A stretch of DNA of 11,447 bases from Candidatus Odinarchaeia archaeon (lineage in GTDB: Archaea > Asgardarchaeota > Odinarchaeia > Odinarchaeales > Odinarchaeaceae): contig JAHQXC010000041.1 of assembly GCA_029856525.1 (NCBI GenBank), positions 1 through 11,447 on the forward strand, read 5' to 3'. Under the pieces are notes generated by a model. It worked only from the letters and a program-made list of their open reading frames with translations. It ran no database searches and was not told the origin of the DNA. This document shows positions 2,288 to 11,164 of this stretch, piece after piece. Position numbers and translations under genes: made by a program. The number at the start of each line of letters is the position of its first letter. The stretch's first letter is position 1.

Positions 2288-2710
2288 TTATTCAATAGGT
2301 TTACCCAGCTCAGCGCACCTAGACCTTATTTCAAGCATTCGCTGAGCTATTGAGACAACTTTAACCATTTTTTCACGGAATATTCTATCCCTCTCCGCAG
2401 GGTTAAGCTCACCGGCTGTTAAACGTTTATCTAACTCAGCTATCTCCAGTCGAATATTCTCCTTCTCCTTGGATAATCGCTCATATTCTTCATATAAAAG
2501 TTGAATCTCGCTTTTAGCTTCAGGTTCAATTCTGAGAGGTTGAATCACAGGCTCCTTAACTTCAACGCCCACGATGCCTGTGAGAGAAGCGGACTCCGGT
2601 TTAACCTCGCCTACTTGCAGTGAACCAGCCGCAGCGGTAAGCCTAGAGCCCTCCCCTCTCCTCCTAGTCAGCTTGTTGAAAAAAGCTTTCAATCTTAAGA
2701 TTAAACCCAA
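2288..2710 (-). CDS. Hypothetical protein, 140 aa; basic amphipathic N-terminus, linker, C-terminal helical hairpin/coiled coil
   Basis: TTG start preceded by SD-like GAGGTGG on the minus strand (2714-2720). Tandem TAA TAA stop. Fills the gap between argS and the operon without overlap. Charged heptad-like C-terminal half. Confidence 0.8.
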   Translation of the reverse strand: MGLILRLKAFFNKLTRRRGEGSRLTAAAGSLQVGEVKPESASLTGIVGVEVKEPVIQPLRIEPEAKSEIQLLYEEYERLSKEKENIRLEIAELDKRLTAGELNPAERDRIFREKMVKVVSIAQRMLEIRSRCAELGKPIE

Positions 2711-2760: not shown

Positions 2761-2890
2761 ATTTAATGTTTACATTCATTTAACCTTTCTAAGTTGAACT
2801 TGACTTGAAGCTTAACAACCTTCTAGCAGCTGGAATCCGCATCCTCTCCATGTTTAAACTGCTAATCTTTAATAATTTATTTTTAATTAA

Positions 2891-2944
2891 ACCGTTAAAC
2901 TTTTAAATAAAGTCCCTTTAATGATTTGTATATAATTCGAGAGG
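2891..2944 (+). promoter_or_regulatory. Putative BRE/TATA promoter (TTTAAATA at 2902-2909) and SD (GAGG at 2941-2944) of the hydrogenase-Hdr operon
   Basis: TATA-like octamer about 45 nt upstream of ATG 2952; GAGG 7 nt before the start. The region is AT-rich, so other boxes are possible. Confidence 0.45.
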
Positions 2945-2951
2945 CGTAAAA

Positions 2952-3434
2952 ATGGCTGACACAGATGATCAGAAGGTTTTATTCTACGACCCTGAGCTGT
3001 GCAGCGGCTGCTCATATTGCATGTTAGCGTGTTCATACGAGCATTTTAAAGTTTTAGATTATGAATTATCGAATCTATGGATTTACCCGGATCCTCAAAG
3101 ACCGTTTTATTATATTGGAATACATTGCTCTCATTGCGACGACCCTATATGTAAGGCTGCTTGCCCCGTTGAAGCTATAAGTAAAGGTGAGGATGGGATA
3201 GTTAACATAGACCAGAATAAGTGTATAGGATGCAGAAGCTGTAATATCATGTGTCCTATTTCCGTTCCCTGGAAAAATCTTGAAAGAAGGGTTTCATTTA
3301 AATGCGATTTCTGTAAAGGGGACCCTAAATGCGCTAAGTTCTGCCCTACAGGGGCGATTTCTGTTAAAACACGGAAAGAAGCTAGAGAACTAGCTAGTAA
3401 ATTGATTTTGAAAGCGGAGGCTAAAAGTAAATGA
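2952..3434 (+). CDS. 4x[4Fe-4S] electron-transfer protein, HycB/HydN/CooF/DmsB family, 160 aa
   Basis: 16 Cys in four groups: CSGCSYCMLAC, CSHCDDPICKAACP, CIGCRSCNIMCP, CDFCKGDPKCAKFCP. This is the diagnostic DmsB/HycB arrangement. Confidence 0.92.
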   Translation: MADTDDQKVLFYDPELCSGCSYCMLACSYEHFKVLDYELSNLWIYPDPQRPFYYIGIHCSHCDDPICKAACPVEAISKGEDGIVNIDQNKCIGCRSCNIMCPISVPWKNLERRVSFKCDFCKGDPKCAKFCPTGAISVKTRKEARELASKLILKAEAKSK

Positions 3435-3706
3435 GCGAGGAGCAGGATAATCTTTACCCTCTTAGAAAAAAGCTGCTTAAGCTACCAGCCGCATATAAGG
3501 GGGCGATAGAGGAGATTCTCCGCGAGGGAATGAACAGAGAGCTACCTGGCTTCTTCGAAGATGAACGTGAAAACCTAGATATAGGTGAGGTTAAAACCGC
3601 TTGGAGAAATGAAGAGGCTCAAAGACAAATCCAGGAATTAGCTAAAATCCTAGGTGTAGACGAGAAGGTAGCATTCGACTGGAGTAAAAAAAGAATAAAA
3701 TATTGA
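3431..3706 (+). CDS. Small soluble helical protein, 91 aa, no Cys; C-terminus resembles the HdrC C-terminal tail
   Basis: ATGA overlap with the upstream stop; 10-nt gap to hdrB. The ORF is well supported. The HdrC resemblance (EAQRQIQELAKILGVDEKVAFDW) is from recalled sequence only. Confidence 0.8.
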   Translation: MSEEQDNLYPLRKKLLKLPAAYKGAIEEILREGMNRELPGFFEDERENLDIGEVKTAWRNEEAQRQIQELAKILGVDEKVAFDWSKKRIKY

Positions 3707-3716
3707 GGGCTATTAT

Positions 3717-4598
3717 ATGGTTGAAACTAAGAAAATAGCTTTCTATCTTGGATGCGCTTTACCGTCAGCTCAATTATTCGGGGAAGCTGCGGGTAAAATA
3801 GTTTTAAAAGATTTAGGAGTTGAACCTCTCGATATAGAGGGTGCTACATGCTGCCCTGACCCTGAGATTAGTAGAACTGTAGCCCCGGAGTTATGGGTTA
3901 CAATGGCTGGTAGAAATATAGCTTTAGCTGAGAAAATGGATGTTGACGTGTTCACTGTATGCAACGGCTGCTACGATACTTTAACACACGCCTATCATAT
4001 GTTAAGCGAAGACGAGCAACTTAACAGGAAAGTTAATGAAAACCTGATGAAGTTTGGAATCCAATATCAGGGGAAACATCGAGTCCTCCACGCTATAGAA
4101 TTACTCTATGATGTAATCGGCTTAGATAGGATTAAAAAACAGATTAAAAGAAAGCTTACAGGTGTAAGAGTTGGAATTCAGTACGGATGCCGGATTAGAC
4201 TCAACCCTAAGAAAGAGCTTGTTAGAAAATTCAGAGAGCTGGTTGAAATATTAGGCTGCGAAGTCGTAGACTTAGAAAGCGATCGCATATGCTGCGGTGT
4301 CCCCATGATGTATAAGGATCAGAAGAAAGCCTTAGCGCAGACGAAGACGAGGTTAGACGATATGGTGAAGCATAATGTGGATTGCATTGTTTTATTCTGC
4401 CCGGCATGCTACGATCGACTTGAAAAAGGCCAGTTAGAATTAAACCAGCAGGGCGGAGACTATGATATACCTGTATTCAATTACTTCGAGCTTTTAGCCT
4501 ACTGCTTCGGCCATGAACCGGATGAATTCGGTGCATATCTTCACAAACTCGACTACGAGAAAATATTTGAAAAAGCTCAATCCGGGGGTAAATCATAA
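3717..4598 (+). CDS. hdrB: Heterodisulfide reductase subunit B-like protein (two CCG domains), 293 aa
   Basis: CX31CCX35CXXC (C13, C45, C46, C82, C85) and CX33CCX34CXXC (C158, C192, C193, C228, C231). HdrB-like context AFYLGC, GATCCP, GRNIALAE, TVCNGCY, YGC. SD-like GAGGG at 3705-3709. Confidence 0.92.
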   Translation: MVETKKIAFYLGCALPSAQLFGEAAGKIVLKDLGVEPLDIEGATCCPDPEISRTVAPELWVTMAGRNIALAEKMDVDVFTVCNGCYDTLTHAYHMLSEDEQLNRKVNENLMKFGIQYQGKHRVLHAIELLYDVIGLDRIKKQIKRKLTGVRVGIQYGCRIRLNPKKELVRKFRELVEILGCEVVDLESDRICCGVPMMYKDQKKALAQTKTRLDDMVKHNVDCIVLFCPACYDRLEKGQLELNQQGGDYDIPVFNYFELLAYCFGHEPDEFGAYLHKLDYEKIFEKAQSGGKS

Positions 4599-4894
4599 TG
4601 GTTAAGTTATCTGAAAGACTTAAAAGGAGAACAATCGCCGTAGCGCTTGTTTTTCTAAGCCTAGGTATTCTAGGCTCATTCTTTTCAAGAACTCTTGTAG
4701 AATTCTTTCTAATGGCTGAAATCGTAGTGATAACAGCATTCTACGTGTTCTTCTCGATAATAGTACCAGGATTATATCCTAAAAAACGCAATAACGAGGA
4801 GATTTTCCTAGGAGGAGTAGCCCGTCCCCCGTATATTCACGAATACGAGTTATATGTTCCAAAGTCGGCTTTAATCTCTGAGGAGGAAACATAG
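4598..4894 (+). CDS. Small membrane protein (2 predicted TM), 98 aa; probable hydrogenase membrane-arm subunit
   Basis: TAATG 1-nt overlap with hdrB; 1-nt gap to the next gene. Two hydrophobic stretches (about aa 12-30 and 34-57) followed by a polar tail containing EEIFLGG. Confidence 0.8.
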   Translation: MVKLSERLKRRTIAVALVFLSLGILGSFFSRTLVEFFLMAEIVVITAFYVFFSIIVPGLYPKKRNNEEIFLGGVARPPYIHEYELYVPKSALISEEET

Positions 4895-4895
4895 G

Positions 4896-6461
4896 ATGGT
4901 CGCGGAGATAATTCTAGCTTTATGCCCGCTTATACTCCCTTTAACCGCTGCTTTAATAGGGTATTTATTCTCTTTAATAGGTGATAACGCTCGAGACGCG
5001 AGTATAATCGTTGTCATCTCCACAGCTTTCATAATTAATTCAATACTACTTATTCAAACCAACCTTGGATTATTCACCCCTGTAGAAATAGGCGCGTTAA
5101 TAATAAATGAATCAGGAATATTCGTCTCAGAGCTAGTTCTATTTTTAGCGCTTCTAGTCATAGTCTACTCGATAAGATACATGTCAGCTGAAAGAGATAA
5201 AAACCTATATTATATTCTAATATGCATATTCACCGGAACCATGATCGGTTTAATCTATTCATTCAATATTATTATACTTTACATGTTTATGGAGGCATCC
5301 ACTGTTACCAGTGCAATCCTAGTAATGTTCGGTAGAACTAGAAGAGCTAATAGAGCTGCTATAATTTATTTAGCTATAAGCATCTTAGGCGGGTTCTTTA
5401 TTTTAGGCGCGGAATTCGTTCTCGTATCAGCTTCCGGAATTGAACTTTTAACCGATCCCGCTATAGCCTTAATCCCCGCGGATATTCGAATAATAATCTC
5501 CATTCTATTATTAGTAGGGTTCGGTGTTAAAGCCGGGATTATACCCTTCGGTTTCATATGGCTGCCTAGAGCACACGCTGAGGCTCCTTCACCTATAAGC
5601 GCGCTTCTCAGCGGGGTATTAGTTCAGGTAGCTGCCTTCGCAATGATTAGAACAATAGGAGTAGTAGCCTTCAACATACAAATAGTTTCAATAATACTAA
5701 TAGTGTTCGGATTAGGCTCCATGCTATCAGGATCCCTATCCGCTCTCTTCGAAGTTTACGGTAGCAGGATCGCGGGTTACAGGTTCAGCAGAGATATAAA
5801 AAGAGTTTTAGCGTACTCTACAATAAGCGAGATCGGTTTCATAGTGATGTTAGGAGGGATCCAAGGCTTATTCGGCCCCTTCGCACCTCCCTTCGAGTTC
5901 TCAGCGCTCACAGCGATGCTAATACACTTATACAATCACGGCTTAGCTAAAGCACTCCTCTTCCTATCTGTGGGAGTAATAATGTACTATCTTCACATAA
6001 GAGATATAGGCCAGCTTGGCGGTTTATCGAAAAATATGCCTGTTACAACAGCCTCATTTCTCATAGGGGCTTTAAGCCTTGGAATGATACCGCCTTTATT
6101 CGGTTATAGAACAATATTCGAATTAGCGTTTGAAATCCCCATCCCGCTTCCCATAAATGTTTTCCTCATCTTATCTATAATAACAATAGGTATTACGCTA
6201 GCATTCTATATCTCCGCGTTCCTCTTCATATTTATTAAACCACGCCCTAAAGGCGCGCTCGGTGATATAAGCGTTGACGCGGCTAAGGTTACACCACCAC
6301 CACGCGTTAAATTATACCAGCCGCTGCCGATGATGGTTCCCATAGCCTTTATAACACTTGTAGTAATAGCGTTAGGAGTATTATTCTTAACAGGAGTGTT
6401 AAACACCCTTGTTTTAAACCTTGAGCATATCGCTTTCACAATAATAAACCCAGGATTGTGA
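4896..6461 (+). CDS. Antiporter-like (MrpD/NuoM/N/MbhH/HycC family) membrane subunit, 521 aa
   Basis: Highly hydrophobic multi-TM protein with family motifs FMEAS, GVKAG...WLPRAHAEAPSPISALLSG, LAYSTISEIG, HLYNHGLAKALLF, GGLSKNMP. Confidence 0.95.
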   Translation: MVAEIILALCPLILPLTAALIGYLFSLIGDNARDASIIVVISTAFIINSILLIQTNLGLFTPVEIGALIINESGIFVSELVLFLALLVIVYSIRYMSAERDKNLYYILICIFTGTMIGLIYSFNIIILYMFMEASTVTSAILVMFGRTRRANRAAIIYLAISILGGFFILGAEFVLVSASGIELLTDPAIALIPADIRIIISILLLVGFGVKAGIIPFGFIWLPRAHAEAPSPISALLSGVLVQVAAFAMIRTIGVVAFNIQIVSIILIVFGLGSMLSGSLSALFEVYGSRIAGYRFSRDIKRVLAYSTISEIGFIVMLGGIQGLFGPFAPPFEFSALTAMLIHLYNHGLAKALLFLSVGVIMYYLHIRDIGQLGGLSKNMPVTTASFLIGALSLGMIPPLFGYRTIFELAFEIPIPLPINVFLILSIITIGITLAFYISAFLFIFIKPRPKGALGDISVDAAKVTPPPRVKLYQPLPMMVPIAFITLVVIALGVLFLTGVLNTLVLNLEHIAFTIINPGL

Positions 6462-8212
6462 TCGAGATGAGCGGTAGTGGAACTGAAACTAGAACAGTTG
6501 AAAAATTCAGTATAGTCGACGAGATTAAATTATTTCTAAAAGAGATGCTTAAAGAAAAATATATTGAAGAAAAACAGATACAAAACAAAAAATATATTAT
6601 AAGAACCACACCTGAATATGTTAAGCCTATAGCTGATTATATGATTAGAAGAGATGGCAGGCTAGTTCATTTAACCGTGTCAGATGAGGGAGTTAACGGA
6701 TTTGAAATACAATACCATTATGGCTTCGATCATCTTGAAACAAACACTCATTTTATTATAAAAGTGAGAGTACCGCGTGAGAAACCTGAAGTCCCGTCAA
6801 TTTCACCGATTACATGGCAGGCGTCTTGGGCTGAAAGAGAAATGATGGATTTACTTGGAGTGAATTTTACAGGTCACCCTGATCCACGCCATCTCTTCCT
6901 CCCCTATGAATGGCCTGAAGAACCTGAAAGCGAGAAAGTTGACGGATTCAGCTTATACACTAAGAGAGATAAATCAGCGTATTATATCCGAAAAGAACTT
7001 GGAAAATGGGTTCCTTTAGCGTTAAGCCCGGCTGATGCTAAGCTCACCCTACTGCCGATAGGACCCTACCACCCTATGTTCATAGAATCCGAGTATTTCC
7101 GTGTGAGAGTTGAAGGAGATGAAATAGTAGACGTAGATATGAAAACAGGTTTCAACCATCGCGGGGTTATGAAATTAGCAGAGCAAAGGCATTACGCGAG
7201 AATACCCTTCCTGGTGGAACGTGTGTGCGGTATATGTAGCACCACCCACGCTACCGCTTACTGTAACACTGTGGAAGCTATGTTAAATATAGAGATCCCT
7301 GATAGAGCGAAGTATATTAGAACGATTATATTAGAGCTTGAACGGTTGCACAGCCATCTGATATGGCTTGGTGTAGCAGGTGATCTTATAGGGTTTAAAA
7401 CACTTTTCATGTGGGCTCTAAGAGATAGAGAACATGTGCTAGATTTATTCGAAAAATTAACAGGGAATAGAGTCCACCATGATATAGTATACTTGGGAGG
7501 GGTTAGAAAAGATATAAGTGAAGCTCACATCCCTGAGATAATTAGAAGAATAGAGTTCATCGAAGAATCTGTTAAAAAATATATAGATATAGCTTACGAT
7601 CATCCTGTTGTAAAAGCGAGAACAATGGATATAGGTAGACTCACCCTCAGCACAGCTAAAGACGCTGGGGCTGTTGGACCTACAGCTAGAGGCAGCAACT
7701 GGAAGATAGATGCTAGAAGCTCTAACCCTTACGCAGCTTATAGCCCGGAGTACACTACCTGGGAGGTGGTAACCGACTCGGGTGGAGATGTCTGGTCGAG
7801 GCTGGTGGTGAGGTTAAAAGAAGCGCTTGTCAGCTGTGATATAATAAGACAGTGCGTTGAGAGAATGAAGTCTACAAGCCCTGATATTAGAGTTAAACCG
7901 CATTTACCTGAAGATGGAGCTGAAGCTGTGAATAAAACAGAGGCGCCTAGAGGAGAATTATACTATTACATTAAATCGAATGGGACGAATATCCCTCACA
8001 CTGTTAGAATAAGAACACCAAGCTATAGAAATGACGCGGTGCTACCGTTCATGTTAAGAGGGCAAACATTATCCGACGCTCCTATTATTATAGGAAGCAT
8101 AGACCCATGCTTCTCATGCACTGATAGAATGATAAGAATAGAGGATGTTAAAACAAACCAGGTGAGGTTTGAGAGAATAGGTGATTTAGCTAGAAAATAC
8201 AGGAGGGCTTAA
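6458..8212 (+). CDS. Group 4 [NiFe]-hydrogenase large subunit, fused NuoC+NuoD-like (HycE/HyfG-like), 584 aa
   Basis: NuoC-like N-terminal part (WAEREMMDLLGVNFTGHPDPRHLFLP); GPYHP; L1 ERVCGIC (C257, C260); EAPRGE; RTPS; L2 DPCFSCTDR (C551, C554). GTG start overlaps the upstream TGA; ATG at 6467 is an alternative. Confidence 0.95.
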   Translation: MIEMSGSGTETRTVEKFSIVDEIKLFLKEMLKEKYIEEKQIQNKKYIIRTTPEYVKPIADYMIRRDGRLVHLTVSDEGVNGFEIQYHYGFDHLETNTHFIIKVRVPREKPEVPSISPITWQASWAEREMMDLLGVNFTGHPDPRHLFLPYEWPEEPESEKVDGFSLYTKRDKSAYYIRKELGKWVPLALSPADAKLTLLPIGPYHPMFIESEYFRVRVEGDEIVDVDMKTGFNHRGVMKLAEQRHYARIPFLVERVCGICSTTHATAYCNTVEAMLNIEIPDRAKYIRTIILELERLHSHLIWLGVAGDLIGFKTLFMWALRDREHVLDLFEKLTGNRVHHDIVYLGGVRKDISEAHIPEIIRRIEFIEESVKKYIDIAYDHPVVKARTMDIGRLTLSTAKDAGAVGPTARGSNWKIDARSSNPYAAYSPEYTTWEVVTDSGGDVWSRLVVRLKEALVSCDIIRQCVERMKSTSPDIRVKPHLPEDGAEAVNKTEAPRGELYYYIKSNGTNIPHTVRIRTPSYRNDAVLPFMLRGQTLSDAPIIIGSIDPCFSCTDRMIRIEDVKTNQVRFERIGDLARKYRRA

Positions 8213-8214
8213 AC

Positions 8215-9333
8215 ATGGCGGTATACCTACCCTTATGGGAGACCGTGATTATCTGTTTCACGCTACCTGTAGCCGGTTTCTTCTTAGGCGTGTTATTTCA
8301 AAGCCTTATTCGAAAGTTTACAGCCCGTTTTCAAGGTCGAAGAGGACCCTGGTATATTGTCCCTAAATCCTTAAGACCTGTAGTCGGCTCAACTAGAATC
8401 CTGCAACCTTTCTGGGATATAATGAAGTTAATGTATAAGCAAACACTGATACCGTCAACCGCTCAGAGAAAAATATTTATGTCAGCGCCTTTCGTAGCTG
8501 CTGCTAGTCTAATAATAGCTATCTGGTTTATTCCTGTTATAGGGGTATCCGCGTTCGGACCGTTCGAGTTCAGTTTGATCGTAACATTATATCTCATGTT
8601 GATAGTGCCTTTAACGATAGTGGCGAGTGGAGCTGCAAGCTCATCGCCTTGGGGTGCGATAGGAAGTTACAGGGAGGTTATACTTACATTAGCCTACGAG
8701 CTCCCTTTCATAATAGGGATATTTTCAACAGCAATGTTAACAGGTATATTAACACCTGTCTACGGAGGTTTACCTTTAATACCTGGAAGCCTCTCTATAA
8801 CAGATATAGTTAACTTTCAAGCATCTCATTCAATCTCATTCTTCGGTTTTAAAATCCCAGCGTTCTTTATAATCTTAAACCCGTTTGCAGCGGTTGCGAT
8901 TCTGATGAGTTTAATAGGAAAGCTTAAAATAAAACCGATGGATATCCCTGACGCAGAAGTAGAGGTTATCGCAGGAGCTTACACCGAGTACACCGGGAAG
9001 CTTCTAGGCGTCTATGAGATGGCGAAAATATTTCTATTATTCGTGAGTTTAACTTTATTCATAGACATGTATCTCGGAGGCGCGTTAATCACAGTAGATT
9101 ATCTAGGTGTCCCCTCATTTATATGGAGTGGAATAGTATTCGGAGTGGAAGCGATCATACTAATCTTAATAATATCAGTCGTTAACGCAGCTAACGCTCG
9201 TTTTAGAATCGACCAAGCCTTCACATGGTATATGAAAATACCTTTAGCGTTAAGTTTAATCGGCTTAGTCTGGCCTTACATTATGGTTTCACTGGCCGGT
9301 GCCGGAGTAAATATAGGGATAAGCATAGTATAG
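8215..9333 (+). CDS. NuoH/HycD/MbhM-like membrane subunit, 372 aa
   Basis: ARFQGRRGP, LQPFWDIMKLMYKQ, SSSPWGAIGSYRE, PMDIPDAEVEVIAGAYTEYTG, ARFRIDQ; multi-TM. Confidence 0.94.
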   Translation: MAVYLPLWETVIICFTLPVAGFFLGVLFQSLIRKFTARFQGRRGPWYIVPKSLRPVVGSTRILQPFWDIMKLMYKQTLIPSTAQRKIFMSAPFVAAASLIIAIWFIPVIGVSAFGPFEFSLIVTLYLMLIVPLTIVASGAASSSPWGAIGSYREVILTLAYELPFIIGIFSTAMLTGILTPVYGGLPLIPGSLSITDIVNFQASHSISFFGFKIPAFFIILNPFAAVAILMSLIGKLKIKPMDIPDAEVEVIAGAYTEYTGKLLGVYEMAKIFLLFVSLTLFIDMYLGGALITVDYLGVPSFIWSGIVFGVEAIILILIISVVNAANARFRIDQAFTWYMKIPLALSLIGLVWPYIMVSLAGAGVNIGISIV

Positions 9334-9343
9334 GAGGAGTAAA

Positions 9344-9952
9344 ATGGTTAAAGGTAAAATTAAGCTTTTAAAAGAAGCGTTGAGAAGCAGCGGAGACATA
9401 CAGACATTAGATTACCCTAGTGGAGATCCTAGGCTAGATTACTCTCAGCCAAGATTTGGAAGCGGAGCTAAGTACAGTCATATATGCGAGGGGTTGAGAG
9501 GAGCCCCACAATATAGTGAAGAGGATTGCTGCGGTTGCGCGGCATGTGAAAGCGTATGCACAGCTAACACTATTAAAACAGAGGATGTTAACGGGAAGAG
9601 AGTTTTTACAATAGATCTTGGTAGATGCGTGTTCTGCGGTCGATGTGAAGAAGAATGCCCTGAAGACGCGATAAAGCTTACCAGTAAATTCGAGTTAGCT
9701 TACACAGGTCCAGGTTCACAGAACCCGGCGAATGTGAGATTTGAAAGAGATTTAATATTATGTGAAAAATGCGGGAACCCTGTAGCTCCTGTTAAACAAT
9801 ATAAGATATACTCTGAGAAAGTTTTAAAAAACCTCGGTGAAAAATGGAGAGAGCAGAGTAGAGAAGACATTGAAAAAGCGGGTAAACTTTGCAGGGAATG
9901 CCGTAGAAGAAACGCTTACACACTTAACCTGCATACTAGAAAATATTATTAA
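9344..9952 (+). CDS. NuoI/HycF-like 2x[4Fe-4S] subunit with an extra C-terminal four-Cys site, 202 aa
   Basis: LRGAP; CCGCAACESVC (C62-C72); CVFCGRCEEECP (C95-C105); extra CEKC (C140, C143) and CREC (C183, C186). SD AGGAGG/GGAG just upstream. Confidence 0.93.
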   Translation: MVKGKIKLLKEALRSSGDIQTLDYPSGDPRLDYSQPRFGSGAKYSHICEGLRGAPQYSEEDCCGCAACESVCTANTIKTEDVNGKRVFTIDLGRCVFCGRCEEECPEDAIKLTSKFELAYTGPGSQNPANVRFERDLILCEKCGNPVAPVKQYKIYSEKVLKNLGEKWREQSREDIEKAGKLCRECRRRNAYTLNLHTRKYY

Positions 9953-9969
9953 AAAAGGAGAATGAGAGT

Positions 9970-10413
9970 ATGGGATTAAAGCAGAAAGCTAGATTATATT
10001 CGCCTTGGGTTTTCCACGCTCACTGCAGCGGCTGCAACGGATGTGGAATAGAGATAGCCGCCGCGTTAAACCCTAGATACGACCCTGAGAGAATAGGTGT
10101 CACATTACATAACAATCCTAGGCATGCAGATATAATGCTCGTGGAGGGAATAGTTGCAAAACAGCATGTGCCATTCCTTAAAAGAACATACGAGCAAATG
10201 CCTACTCCGAAAGCAGTTGTAGCGATAGGGTCATGCGCTATAACAGGCGGTGTTTTTAAACCGGACGATGATAAAGGTCCATCATACACTCAGGGAGGGC
10301 CTGTTGACAGGATAATACCAGTCGACGTGTATGTACCAGGCTGCCCGCCTAAACCTGAAGCAATCATAGATGGAATCATAAAAGCAGCGATCATACTCTC
10401 TAAAAGAGATTGA
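9970..10413 (+). CDS. Group 4 hydrogenase small subunit, NuoB/HycG/MbhJ-like, 147 aa
   Basis: CSGCNGCGIEI, NPRHADI, AIGSCAITGGVF, PVDVYVPGCPPKPEAI. SD AAGGAG at 9955-9960. Confidence 0.95.
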   Translation: MGLKQKARLYSPWVFHAHCSGCNGCGIEIAAALNPRYDPERIGVTLHNNPRHADIMLVEGIVAKQHVPFLKRTYEQMPTPKAVVAIGSCAITGGVFKPDDDKGPSYTQGGPVDRIIPVDVYVPGCPPKPEAIIDGIIKAAIILSKRD

Positions 10414-10489: not shown

Positions 10490-11164
10490 ATGGTCTCATT
10501 AGCTGAAATAGCAGTCACTATAACTTTATTTCTATGGGTCGCCTTCGTGGTAACTGTTTTAACGAGAAAACTATACTCGTTTCTAACGAAAAGAGGCGTA
10601 GAGCATACAATCGCGGTTTATTATAATCGGAAAGTCATTCATATGTTAGCCGGCGGGGTTTCCGCTATCGTAGTCCCCTTCGTCTATACAACTCCGATTC
10701 TCCCTTTAGCGTTCGCTTCTCTATTAGCGGTTTTCATATATATTCCACACCGGACAGGTAAACTTATGAACTGGTTCCAGGTATGCGAAAACTGTTATGA
10801 GGTATCTTTCGCTATCATGTGGGGGACGGTTTTAACTTTAGGCTGGTTTTTCTCAGGCGGTAACTTCTGGTTTGGAGTTCTACCAGCTTTATTCATGGCT
10901 TTCGGGGATGCGATAACAGGTGTTGTTCGAAACGCGTTATATAAAAGAAGAACTAAATCATGGTATGGGAATCTAGCTATGGCAACCGTTTCAATACCTA
11001 CAGGTGCGATACTCGGCCCTATGGGGGTTATCTCCGGTTTCATAGCTAGTATAATAGAGCATTTCGAGTTCGGTCCAATAGATGATAATATAACTGTTCC
11101 AGCCGTCACTTTGATATTACTACTCGTAGTAAATTACTTTATTCCAGGTTTCCTCTCATTCTAA
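10490..11164 (+). CDS. CTP-dependent isoprenoid-alcohol kinase family membrane protein (dolichol/phytol kinase, Dgk1-like), 224 aa
   Basis: Family motifs RKVIHML, FGDAITG, KSWYG, DDNITVP in a multi-TM protein. The exact substrate cannot be assigned. Confidence 0.85.
   Translation: MVSLAEIAVTITLFLWVAFVVTVLTRKLYSFLTKRGVEHTIAVYYNRKVIHMLAGGVSAIVVPFVYTTPILPLAFASLLAVFIYIPHRTGKLMNWFQVCENCYEVSFAIMWGTVLTLGWFFSGGNFWFGVLPALFMAFGDAITGVVRNALYKRRTKSWYGNLAMATVSIPTGAILGPMGVISGFIASIIEHFEFGPIDDNITVPAVTLILLLVVNYFIPGFLSF

Follow-up and report, generated by a model that had tools for sequence, protein, structure and literature searches.

An Ehd-type [NiFe] hydrogenase operon carrying an HdrB module in a Candidatus Odinarchaeia archaeon

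The window analysed here is a stretch of 11,447 nucleotides (nt) from a Candidatus Odinarchaeia archaeon (assembly GCA_029856525.1, contig JAHQXC010000041.1). Its main element is a nine-gene operon in which hdrB, encoding a subunit of heterodisulfide reductase (Hdr), lies among the genes of a membrane-bound group 4 [NiFe] hydrogenase. The operon is real and well supported, the core interpretation given in an original prediction from the DNA letters is right, and the system is already known, both in kind and for Odinarchaeia. The nine genes (g1 to g9) probably encode a single complex of the Ehd type, a membrane group 4 [NiFe] hydrogenase whose peripheral arm would bear an HdrB disulfide-reductase module, with electrons passing from the [NiFe] site through g9, g8 and g1 to HdrB. 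The reaction would be coupled to ions and free of bifurcation, running most likely from H2 to a disulfide other than the heterodisulfide of coenzymes M and B (CoM-S-S-CoB).

Complexes of this kind combine a disulfide reductase like that of methanogens with a hydrogenase resembling complex I, and they bear on the evolution of respiratory complexes. They also bear on hydrogen handling in Asgard archaea, the closest prokaryotic relatives of eukaryotes. The window contributes a further intact example on which biochemical work can draw, and no new kind of system. Its anatomical additions are an HdrC divided between a borrowed four-cluster ferredoxin and a tail free of Cys, the fusion of that tail to NuoC in other Asgard lineages, and a conserved alteration of the antiporter lysine pattern.

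Organization of the operon

The nine plus-strand open reading frames (ORFs) extend from 2952 to 10413, with spacings of -4, 10, -1, 1, -4, 2, 10 and 17 nt, and the ORF list gives coordinates and gaps identical to those of the original prediction. Domains were called with Pfam and NCBIfam, and structural matches were sought against Protein Data Bank (PDB) chains; the values in brackets are E-values.

g1, 2952-3434 (+): HycB/HybA-type ferredoxin with four [4Fe-4S] motifs and 16 Cys (Pfam Fer4_11, 1e-16)
g2 (ORF91), 3431-3706 (+): Cys-free C-terminal tail of HdrC (profile match to solved HdrC)
g3 (hdrB), 3717-4598 (+): HdrB with two CCG domains (5odc_B, 1.5e-58, full length)
g4 (ORF98), 4598-4894 (+): small membrane protein of 98 amino acids (aa) with two predicted helices
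g5, 4896-6461 (+): antiporter-like subunit of the MrpA/D, NuoL, HyfB type (Proton_antipo_M, 9e-40)
g6, 6458-8212 (+): fused NuoC/NuoD-type [NiFe] large subunit of group 4 (Pfam Complex1_30kDa, 49kDa and NiFeSe_Hases)
g7, 8215-9333 (+): NuoH/HycD-like membrane subunit (Pfam NADHdh, 6e-55)
g8, 9344-9952 (+): HycF/HyfH-like protein with 2x[4Fe-4S] and a C-terminal CxxC...CxxC (NF009053, 5e-31)
g9, 9970-10413 (+): NuoB/HycG-like small subunit with the proximal [4Fe-4S] cluster (Oxidored_q6, 2e-34)

This set had been likened to the hycBCDEFG parts list of Escherichia coli formate hydrogenlyase 1 (FHL-1), and the likeness holds, with g6 matching HycE (7z0s_E, 1.5e-89), g8 matching HycF (7z0s_F, 6e-21) and g1 matching HycB (7z0s_B, 8e-13). 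The claim that hdrB sits inside the hydrogenase operon is likewise confirmed, since g3 lies between g2 and g4 with a 10-nt gap before it and a 1-nt overlap after it.

A Shine-Dalgarno motif (GAGG/GGAGG-like) stands 5-10 nt before the start codon in eight of the nine genes, and no run of six T residues occurs on the sense strand within the operon. The putative expression signals lie ahead of g1, in an AT-rich intergenic region of 240 nt.

2880-2951 (+): putative archaeal promoter and ribosome-binding region of the operon, proposed from its sequence

This region holds a TATA-like box, TTTTAAATA, about 40 nt before the ATG of g1 and a GAGG motif 6 nt before the same ATG. A search of sequencing runs gave no RNA run and one DNA run from sediment, which may be the source material. 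The start of g6 is ambiguous (window 6458-6469), being either the GTG at 6458, which overlaps g5 by 4 nt, or the ATG at 6467. The latter may be correct because the database copy of the protein has 581 aa; the g5/g6 junction would then measure +5 nt rather than -4, a cosmetic change to one junction.

The Hdr module

The first three genes encode the module that sets this hydrogenase apart from FHL-1. In g1, all 16 Cys are invariant in nine orthologues, and solved proteins closer than HycB are 9mqx_E (1e-23) and FdnH (8e-20). ORF91 matched no Pfam family, and its relatives number just 31 among 5.8 billion proteins. A profile of eight orthologues nevertheless finds solved HdrC, matching residues 123-184 of 8rvu_c (E 4.4e-11) and residues 114-183 of 5odc_C (E 6e-8), that is, the C-terminal 60-70 residues. 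ORF91 contains no Cys and lacks the 2x[4Fe-4S] ferredoxin domain of HdrC. Some of its relatives, including ones from Bathyarchaeia, are labelled 'heterodisulfide reductase subunit C' or 'hdrC-like protein [Ca. Methanosuratus]'. Because of the profile match to the HdrC tail and these labels, ORF91 is, judged by homology, the cluster-less 'HdrC-like' protein (the 'HdrC' of HdrBC) of published Ehd clusters. The earlier statement that the operon has no canonical hdrC is thus literally true, yet the C-terminal tail of HdrC is present.

HdrB (g3) keeps all ten cluster-binding Cys, which are invariant in ten orthologues, and is the sole HdrB of the genome. It scores 230 bits against the TIGR03288 equivalog model, whose cut-off is 345, and is also matched by the models for SdhE (NF042965, 2e-31) and LdhH. 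Its second CCG domain reads GCR / CCGVPMM / CPACYD, where canonical HdrB has GCH / CCGAGGGV / CxFCHLQ. The change from GCH to GCR and the loss of CCGAGGGV were considered as a sign of a substrate other than CoM/CoB, and this reading was rejected: the HdrBs of methanogenic Ehd complexes are likewise without CCGAGGGV and CxFCHLQ, and canonical Asgard HdrBs in non-methanogens retain both. At the level of sequence, the remodelled motifs are a mark of the hydrogenase-linked HdrB clade and not of a particular substrate.

The sub-threshold equivalog score, the SdhE and LdhH matches and the absence of the two canonical motifs would all fit an HdrB that acts on a non-disulfide substrate, like the CCG-domain relatives in LutA/GlcF or SdhE-type enzymes. 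We regard this as improbable, given the full-length match to solved HdrB, the conservation of the ten Cys, the accompanying HdrC tail and the occurrence of the same remodelled motifs in methanogen Ehd, where the heterodisulfide is the expected substrate.

Structure prediction supports the binding of g1 to HdrB:ORF91, without amounting to proof. With the three chains HdrB, ORF91 and g1 modelled together and g1 scored, the interface score ipSAE (interaction prediction score from aligned errors) was 0.83 (runs 0.81, 0.83 and 0.83), and the best of three controls reached 0.00. The mark applied to this score is passed by 58 of 80 solved complexes and by 2 of 110 mismatched pairs. Contact agreement between the docking runs was at least 87%, and the partner had a predicted local distance difference test (pLDDT) value of 89. 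In the predicted model, the parts of g1 near C17-C27 and C127-C131 are turned towards the CCG regions of HdrB.

The original prediction also held that no fdh, hdrA, mvhD or full hdrC belongs to the operon. This is so, and the same genes were unmatched in the rest of the genome assembly (1.32 Mb, 127 contigs, estimated 93% complete). A genome-wide screen for mcr, CoM synthesis, hdrA and fdh, which had been proposed as a check, gave no match; McrA, MvhD, HdrA, molybdopterin enzymes, full HdrC and ComA are all unmatched in this assembly. The HdrA2 model found ferredoxin-motif matches alone (33 bits at most), FlpD/MvhD had no match, and PF00384 (molybdopterin enzymes) had none either; no FdhF is encoded in the window. 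The HdrC model TIGR03290 matched just the N-terminus of an HdrD-like gene on another contig, C117.

Hydrogenase core and membrane arm

Both Ni-Fe Cys motifs of g6 are intact (RVCGICSTTH and DPCFSCTDR), with C254, C257, C548 and C551 invariant in 13 homologues. Beyond the DPCxxCxxR motif, g6 carries a C-terminal extension of 27 aa, which fits the presence of a HycI-type endopeptidase in the genome; HypD is the other maturation protein encoded. After HycE, MbhL (6e-76) is a further solved match of g6. The 'extra Cys4 site' ascribed to g8 exists as a CxxC...CxxC pattern, yet it is not extra: the C-terminal Cys pairs align with those of E. coli HycF and are a family trait.

In the membrane arm, g5 is the only antiporter-like subunit of the operon, and its PDB matches include MrpA (7qru_A, 3e-34) and MbhH (6cfw_H, 4e-33). 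It has Gln where MrpA and MbhH carry the Lys of transmembrane helix 8 (TM8), and the Lys of TM12 is absent (residues 238-248 and 398-412; window 5610-5640 and 6090-6130). This pattern is kept in the Odin, Bathyarchaeota and methanogen Ehd orthologues and is not shared by those of Hermodarchaeota or Asgardarchaeum. For g4, no Pfam family was found at E-values up to 5 and no usable Atlas match, and orthologues with 24-97% identity occur in Odin, Bathyarchaeota, Baldrarchaeota and Methanomethylicaceae clusters.

Conservation, gene fusion and phylogeny

The nearest large subunits come from Odinarchaeia metagenome-assembled genomes (67-93% identity), Bathyarchaeia (about 50-59%) and Methanomethylicia/Methanosuratincola (43-49%). 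In a large-subunit profile search, hdrB stands beside the hydrogenase genes in 9 of 80 loci. The best matching locus, from Odinarchaeota J65_bin.29 (L001), has the nine genes in identical order, with 89-98% protein identity. The principal loci, by lineage and gene order, are these.

L001, Odin: g1 to g9, in window order
L002, Bathyarchaeota: all nine genes, in window order
L003, Baldrarchaeota: g4, g7, g8, g9, g1, g2, g3, g6
L004, labelled Methanomethylicia: g1, g2, g3, g9, g5, g6, g7, g8
L005, Hermodarchaeota: g1, g2, g3, then a split large subunit
L006, L007 and L022, Methanomethylicaceae and allies: partial or rearranged
L032, Asgardarchaeum: NuoC-like, hdrB, NuoD-like
L105, Methanosuratincola petrocarbonis Ehd: antiporter, Fer4_11, 117-aa protein, CCG, large subunit, NuoH-like, Fer4, small subunit; adjoins mtaB/mtaC

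The order hycB-like/ORF91/hdrB/ORF98/antiporter, singled out in the original prediction, is thus kept in L001 and L002 and rearranged in other loci. The hydrogenase genes are interleaved with hdrB in several differing orders, and the linkage is kept in at least six archaeal lineages. The Bathyarchaeota locus retains all nine genes in order at 34% identity for ORF91 and 44% for ORF98. This locus and the Methanosuratincola Ehd, which has the same parts, undo the earlier view that a HycB-type wire and an absent HdrC make a distinct architecture; so does the identity of ORF91 as the HdrC tail.

The ORF91 profile was also run on 400 Asgard species genomes, where it found about 19 strong, full-length, stand-alone tails. 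At each one examined, 17 strong stand-alone-tail loci in all, the tail belongs to a g1-g2-g3 triad that adjoins hydrogenase genes. A further 215 or so weaker matches, covering profile positions 23-89, are ordinary HdrC proteins (185-230 aa) beside ordinary HdrB. In G001, G005 and L032, the HdrC tail is fused to the C-terminus of a NuoC-like protein (221-223 aa), followed by hdrB and a NuoD-like gene. The NuoC-HdrC tail fusions in deep-branching Asgard genomes are placed as follows.

L124:1495-2160 (-): NuoC-HdrC tail fusion
L125:1495-2166 (-): NuoC-HdrC tail fusion
L032:8435-9100 (+): NuoC-HdrC tail fusion

Because the tail is joined to a NuoC-like subunit, this Rosetta-stone fusion speaks for a physical link between the Hdr module and the arm of the hydrogenase.

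In a quick, unrooted tree of 84 large-subunit D-parts, built without HydDB or named subgroup references, a single branch separates all nine HdrB-linked large subunits from the other sequences, with a support of 93 in the Shimodaira-Hasegawa-like approximate likelihood ratio test (SH-aLRT); the inner seven have 99. The clade holds the window together with the HdrB-linked large subunits of Methanomethylicaceae, Bathyarchaeota, Baldrarchaeota, Hermodarchaeota and Asgardarchaeum. The window and L001 are sister to the Bathyarchaeota sequence (L002), the nearest branch outside Odin.

The same tree places, as a sister clade of the HdrB-linked enzymes, a set of bacterial enzymes whose loci begin with a HycB-like gene. 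About 55 such group 4 loci (among L008-L080) were seen in Omnitrophota, Bacteroidota, Cloacimonadota, Planctomycetota and others, none with HdrB. Their layout comprises HycB-like, NuoH-like, small subunit, split C and D, two antiporter genes and HycF-like.

That the Hdr remnant and the hydrogenase are unrelated modules lying side by side, with no single complex, is highly improbable in view of the start/stop overlaps, the linkage across lineages in different interleaved orders, the fusion of the tail to NuoC in some genomes and the monophyly of the HdrB-linked large subunits.

Another reading gives g1 a different role. The HycB-like protein might serve mainly as a ferredoxin dock of a ferredoxin-oxidising, H2-evolving hydrogenase, with HdrB as an alternative outlet (ferredoxin:disulfide). 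In its favour, ferredoxin is used by relatives of the Mbh and Ech types, the gene for a ferredoxin-producing oxidoreductase lies no more than about 15 kb away, and Appler et al. (2024, bioRxiv 10.1101/2024.07.04.601786) portray the Asgard complexes as MBH-like enzymes that oxidise ferredoxin and have an added Hdr domain. We hold this role to be unlikely, however, as the bacterial loci show that g1 alone needs no HdrB, and the strict triad and the NuoC-tail fusion point to HdrB as the integral end point of the wire.

Proposed mechanism and direction

From the gene content, homology, conserved linkage and fusion, an order of assembly, a direction, a substrate and a coupling to ions can be proposed. 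Electrons would pass between the [NiFe] site of g6, the proximal cluster of g9, the clusters of g8, the four [4Fe-4S] clusters of g1 and the non-cubane clusters of HdrB. The two non-cubane clusters of HdrB would form the catalytic site for disulfide/thiol chemistry. ORF91 would clasp HdrB and anchor it to the NuoC-like part of the hydrogenase, and g1 would take over from the HdrC ferredoxin domain. Coupling of the redox reaction to ion movement would fall to the membrane part (g4, g5 and g7). Two electrons would be exchanged between H2/2H+ and a thiol/disulfide couple and, as there is no HdrA, flavin-based bifurcation would play no part.

The direction taken as most likely is the one that conserves energy, with oxidation of H2, reduction of a disulfide and ions moving out. 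It is preferred because, for any disulfide couple known to us, the downhill direction is from H2 to the disulfide. The same direction is the literature proposal for Ehd (Kohtz 2022, PMC9723716).

The same complex may conceivably run backwards, a serious though less likely alternative: a dithiol, such as dihydrolipoyl-GcvH from glycine cleavage in amino-acid fermentation, would be oxidised and H2 released, with low H2 pressure at high temperature drawing the reaction forward or the ion gradient driving it. The organism looks fermentative, with three group 4 hydrogenases, a nearby 2-oxoacid:ferredoxin oxidoreductase and no respiratory molybdoenzymes, and the complex has as its nearest relatives of solved structure the H2-evolving Hyc and Mbh. 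The glycine cleavage genes are present, forward glycine cleavage gives a dithiol that needs an oxidant, and GcvH recurs beside these clusters. However, on established redox potentials, no known biological disulfide couple would let the reversed reaction run downhill under standard conditions. Moreover, the genome encodes two Lpd-like proteins that could reoxidise GcvH, and H2 uptake was assumed for the methanogen version of the complex (Kohtz 2022, PMC9723716).

Several points weigh against the H2-to-disulfide complex set out above. The direction is unreadable from sequence, and the closest enzymes of solved structure work as H2 producers. Neither Kohtz 2022 (PMC9723716) nor the available part of Appler 2024 reports an Ehd-type member that has been biochemically characterised. 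Ion pumping or coupling by g5 may be altered, because the TM8 and TM12 lysines are missing. The g1-HdrB score may be inflated by likeness to solved HdrBC structures. The genome-wide absences come from an incomplete assembly and are not proof of absence. Finally, GcvH may merely serve the glycine cleavage system, and argS separates it from the operon.

GcvH and the candidate substrate

CoM-S-S-CoB is unlikely to be the substrate in this Odinarchaeon, because the genome shows no Mcr and no comA gene for CoM synthesis. The best candidate would be the lipoyl arm of the neighbouring GcvH. Genes for GcvH-like lipoyl proteins were found near the clusters at the following positions.

L139 (C96) 8511-8939 (-): GcvH-like lipoyl protein of the window genome
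L001:3148-3576: GcvH-like lipoyl protein
L106:2835-3317: GcvH-like lipoyl protein
L002:13669-14103: GcvH-like lipoyl protein
L004:5682-6095: GcvH-like lipoyl protein

In three Odin genomes, 2.9-3.2 kb separate the cluster from a GcvH gene with the lipoyl-lysine motif; in the window genome it is about 3 kb away, beyond argS. In the Bathyarchaeota locus (L002) it is co-oriented and starts 25 nt after the small-subunit gene, followed by GlcD-like and HdrD-like genes, and in L004 it is co-oriented and ends 19 nt before g1. GcvH is thus near the cluster in three independent lineages, and it is single-copy in the one genome checked, the present one.

The genome also encodes GcvT, GcvP and the two Lpd-like proteins, which make a full glycine cleavage set. 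Because these genes are present too, the link between GcvH and the complex is suggestive only, and finding GcvH there was not accepted as proving that it is a dedicated partner. A GcvH partner had already been floated for the Ehe of Culexarchaeia (Kohtz et al. 2022, PMC9723716). The broader proposal that, in non-methanogenic archaea, the HdrB-hydrogenase acts on the lipoyl arm of GcvH and links glycine cleavage or synthase to H2 at the membrane is doubtful. If it were true, glycine-derived electrons would leave as H2, or H2 would charge GcvH for reductive glycine synthesis, and the complex would be a lipoyl-protein:H+ oxidoreductase rather than a heterodisulfide reductase. Novelty would then be confined to carrying the idea over to Odin and Bathyarchaeota and tying it to glycine metabolism.

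Host genome and gene neighbourhood

The window is the entire contig C63 (11.4 kb). Synteny with a 1-Mb contig of Odinarchaeota J65_bin.29 (L001) suggests the contig order C96, C63, C17. On that basis, the operon would be preceded by Mrp-like genes, a small GTPase, GcvH, ArgRS and a 140-aa protein, and followed by a 224-aa membrane protein, an old yellow enzyme (OYE)-type flavoprotein, an ArsB-like transporter and a second group 4 hydrogenase of five genes. The Mrp-like genes lie about 6-9 kb upstream on the adjoining contig C96, outside the operon.

Window 2288-2710 (-): 140-aa protein, coiled-coil-like, about 60% conserved at the same site in other Odin genomes
Window 10490-11164: 224-aa multi-pass membrane protein with its own TATA-like box, 86% conserved at the same site in a related Odin genome
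L138 (C17) 2879-6858: second compact group 4 hydrogenase, placed by synteny about 4 kb beyond the downstream end of the window
C17 11356-14483: 2-oxoacid:ferredoxin oxidoreductase, the enzyme within about 15 kb of the operon
G000:C117:2632-5197 (-): HdrD/GlcF-like gene (391 aa) and GlcD-like FAD oxidase (462 aa)

No Pfam family was matched by the 140-aa protein or the 224-aa protein. The 391-aa HdrD/GlcF-like protein is the only CCG-domain protein of the genome besides g3. The second hydrogenase consists of NuoA-like, small subunit, fused C/D large subunit, NuoH-like and NuoI-like proteins and has no antiporter gene; the third of the group 4 large subunits is located on C54. The small GTPase upstream of the cluster in Odin genomes is Arf/Ras-like, and its gene lies a few kb away (L139 (C96) 6554-7144; L106:130-726).

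Comparison with known systems

The Ehd complex of Methanomethylicia (Verstraetearchaeota) owes its name to Borrel et al. 2019, according to Kohtz et al. 2022 (PMC9723716), and the original prediction was correct in giving it as a precedent for HdrB with a group 4 hydrogenase. Ehd (Methanomethylicia), Ehe (Culexarchaeia), Drh, Ehg and 'Ehd-like' complexes (Bathyarchaeia and others) are HdrB-interacting group 4 hydrogenases, with non-methanogens among their hosts (Kohtz 2022, PMC9723716). The Ehd of L105 shares with the window eight core parts: antiporter, Fer4_11, cluster-less HdrC-like tail, HdrB, C/D, NuoH-like, HycF-like and small subunit. The large subunits of both fall in one clade, at 43-45% identity, and both antiporters have the TM8 Gln pattern. 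In contrast, the Ehd order starts with the antiporter gene, whereas the window has g4 and g5 between hdrB and the large subunit, and the HdrB motif is GCH in Ehd and GCR in the window. The Ehd host is a methyl-reducing methanogen with mtaB/mtaC adjacent to the cluster and CoM-S-S-CoB as the expected substrate, while the window host shows no Mcr or ComA.

The Ehd-like cluster of Bathyarchaeota (L002) resembles the window in its nine genes in the same order, its non-methanogen host and its association with GcvH. It differs in having GcvH, GlcD-like and HdrD-like genes directly after the cluster, whereas the GlcD/HdrD-like pair of the window genome is on C117. Ehe adds SdhA, CdhA and HdrA2B2C2 (Kohtz 2022, PMC9723716), unlike the window operon.

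For Asgard archaea, Appler et al. 2024 (bioRxiv 10.1101/2024.07.04.601786) describe hydrogenases of groups 4l/4q that bear a 'peripheral heterodisulfide reductase domain'. The carriers given there are Odinarchaeia, Baldrarchaeia, Hermodarchaeia and Asgardarchaeia, and AlphaFold-Multimer models show the complexes as MBH-like with an Hdr module. Loci from these lineages in the present analysis carry the same g1-g2-g3 triad. The novelty once claimed for the window is therefore lost, since homologues identical in content to described Ehd clusters exist and HdrB-bearing group 4 hydrogenases of Odinarchaeia appear in that preprint. The split HdrC (tail only) and the NuoC-tail fusion are not spelled out in the part of Appler et al. 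2024 available.

FHL-1 (7z0s) provides the best solved matches for g6 and g8, and its HycB also matches g1. In FHL-1, HycB wires FdhF to the hydrogenase core. Its membrane part, like that of the window complex, includes a single antiporter-like subunit and a single NuoH-like one, and HycI processes the C-terminal extension that its large subunit likewise carries. Unlike FHL-1, the window genome shows no FdhF or molybdopterin enzyme, HdrB and the HdrC tail stand at the end of the HycB wire, and g4 is extra.

HdrABC-MvhAGD of methanogens (5odc, 8rvu) has an HdrB that is homologous over its full length, with all the CCG cysteines kept, and a homologous HdrC tail. By contrast, the window is without HdrA, MvhD and the ferredoxin domain of HdrC, which makes flavin-based bifurcation impossible, and electrons would come via the membrane hydrogenase. 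Unlike Mbh (group 4d), the operon has no multi-subunit Mrp-like module (MbhA-H) but one antiporter-like gene and the 98-aa protein. Taken over all these systems, the window cluster has every sequence-level feature of the Ehd-type family: intact Ni-Fe motifs, hdrB in the cluster, an HdrC-like protein, an antiporter-like subunit and the shared large-subunit clade.

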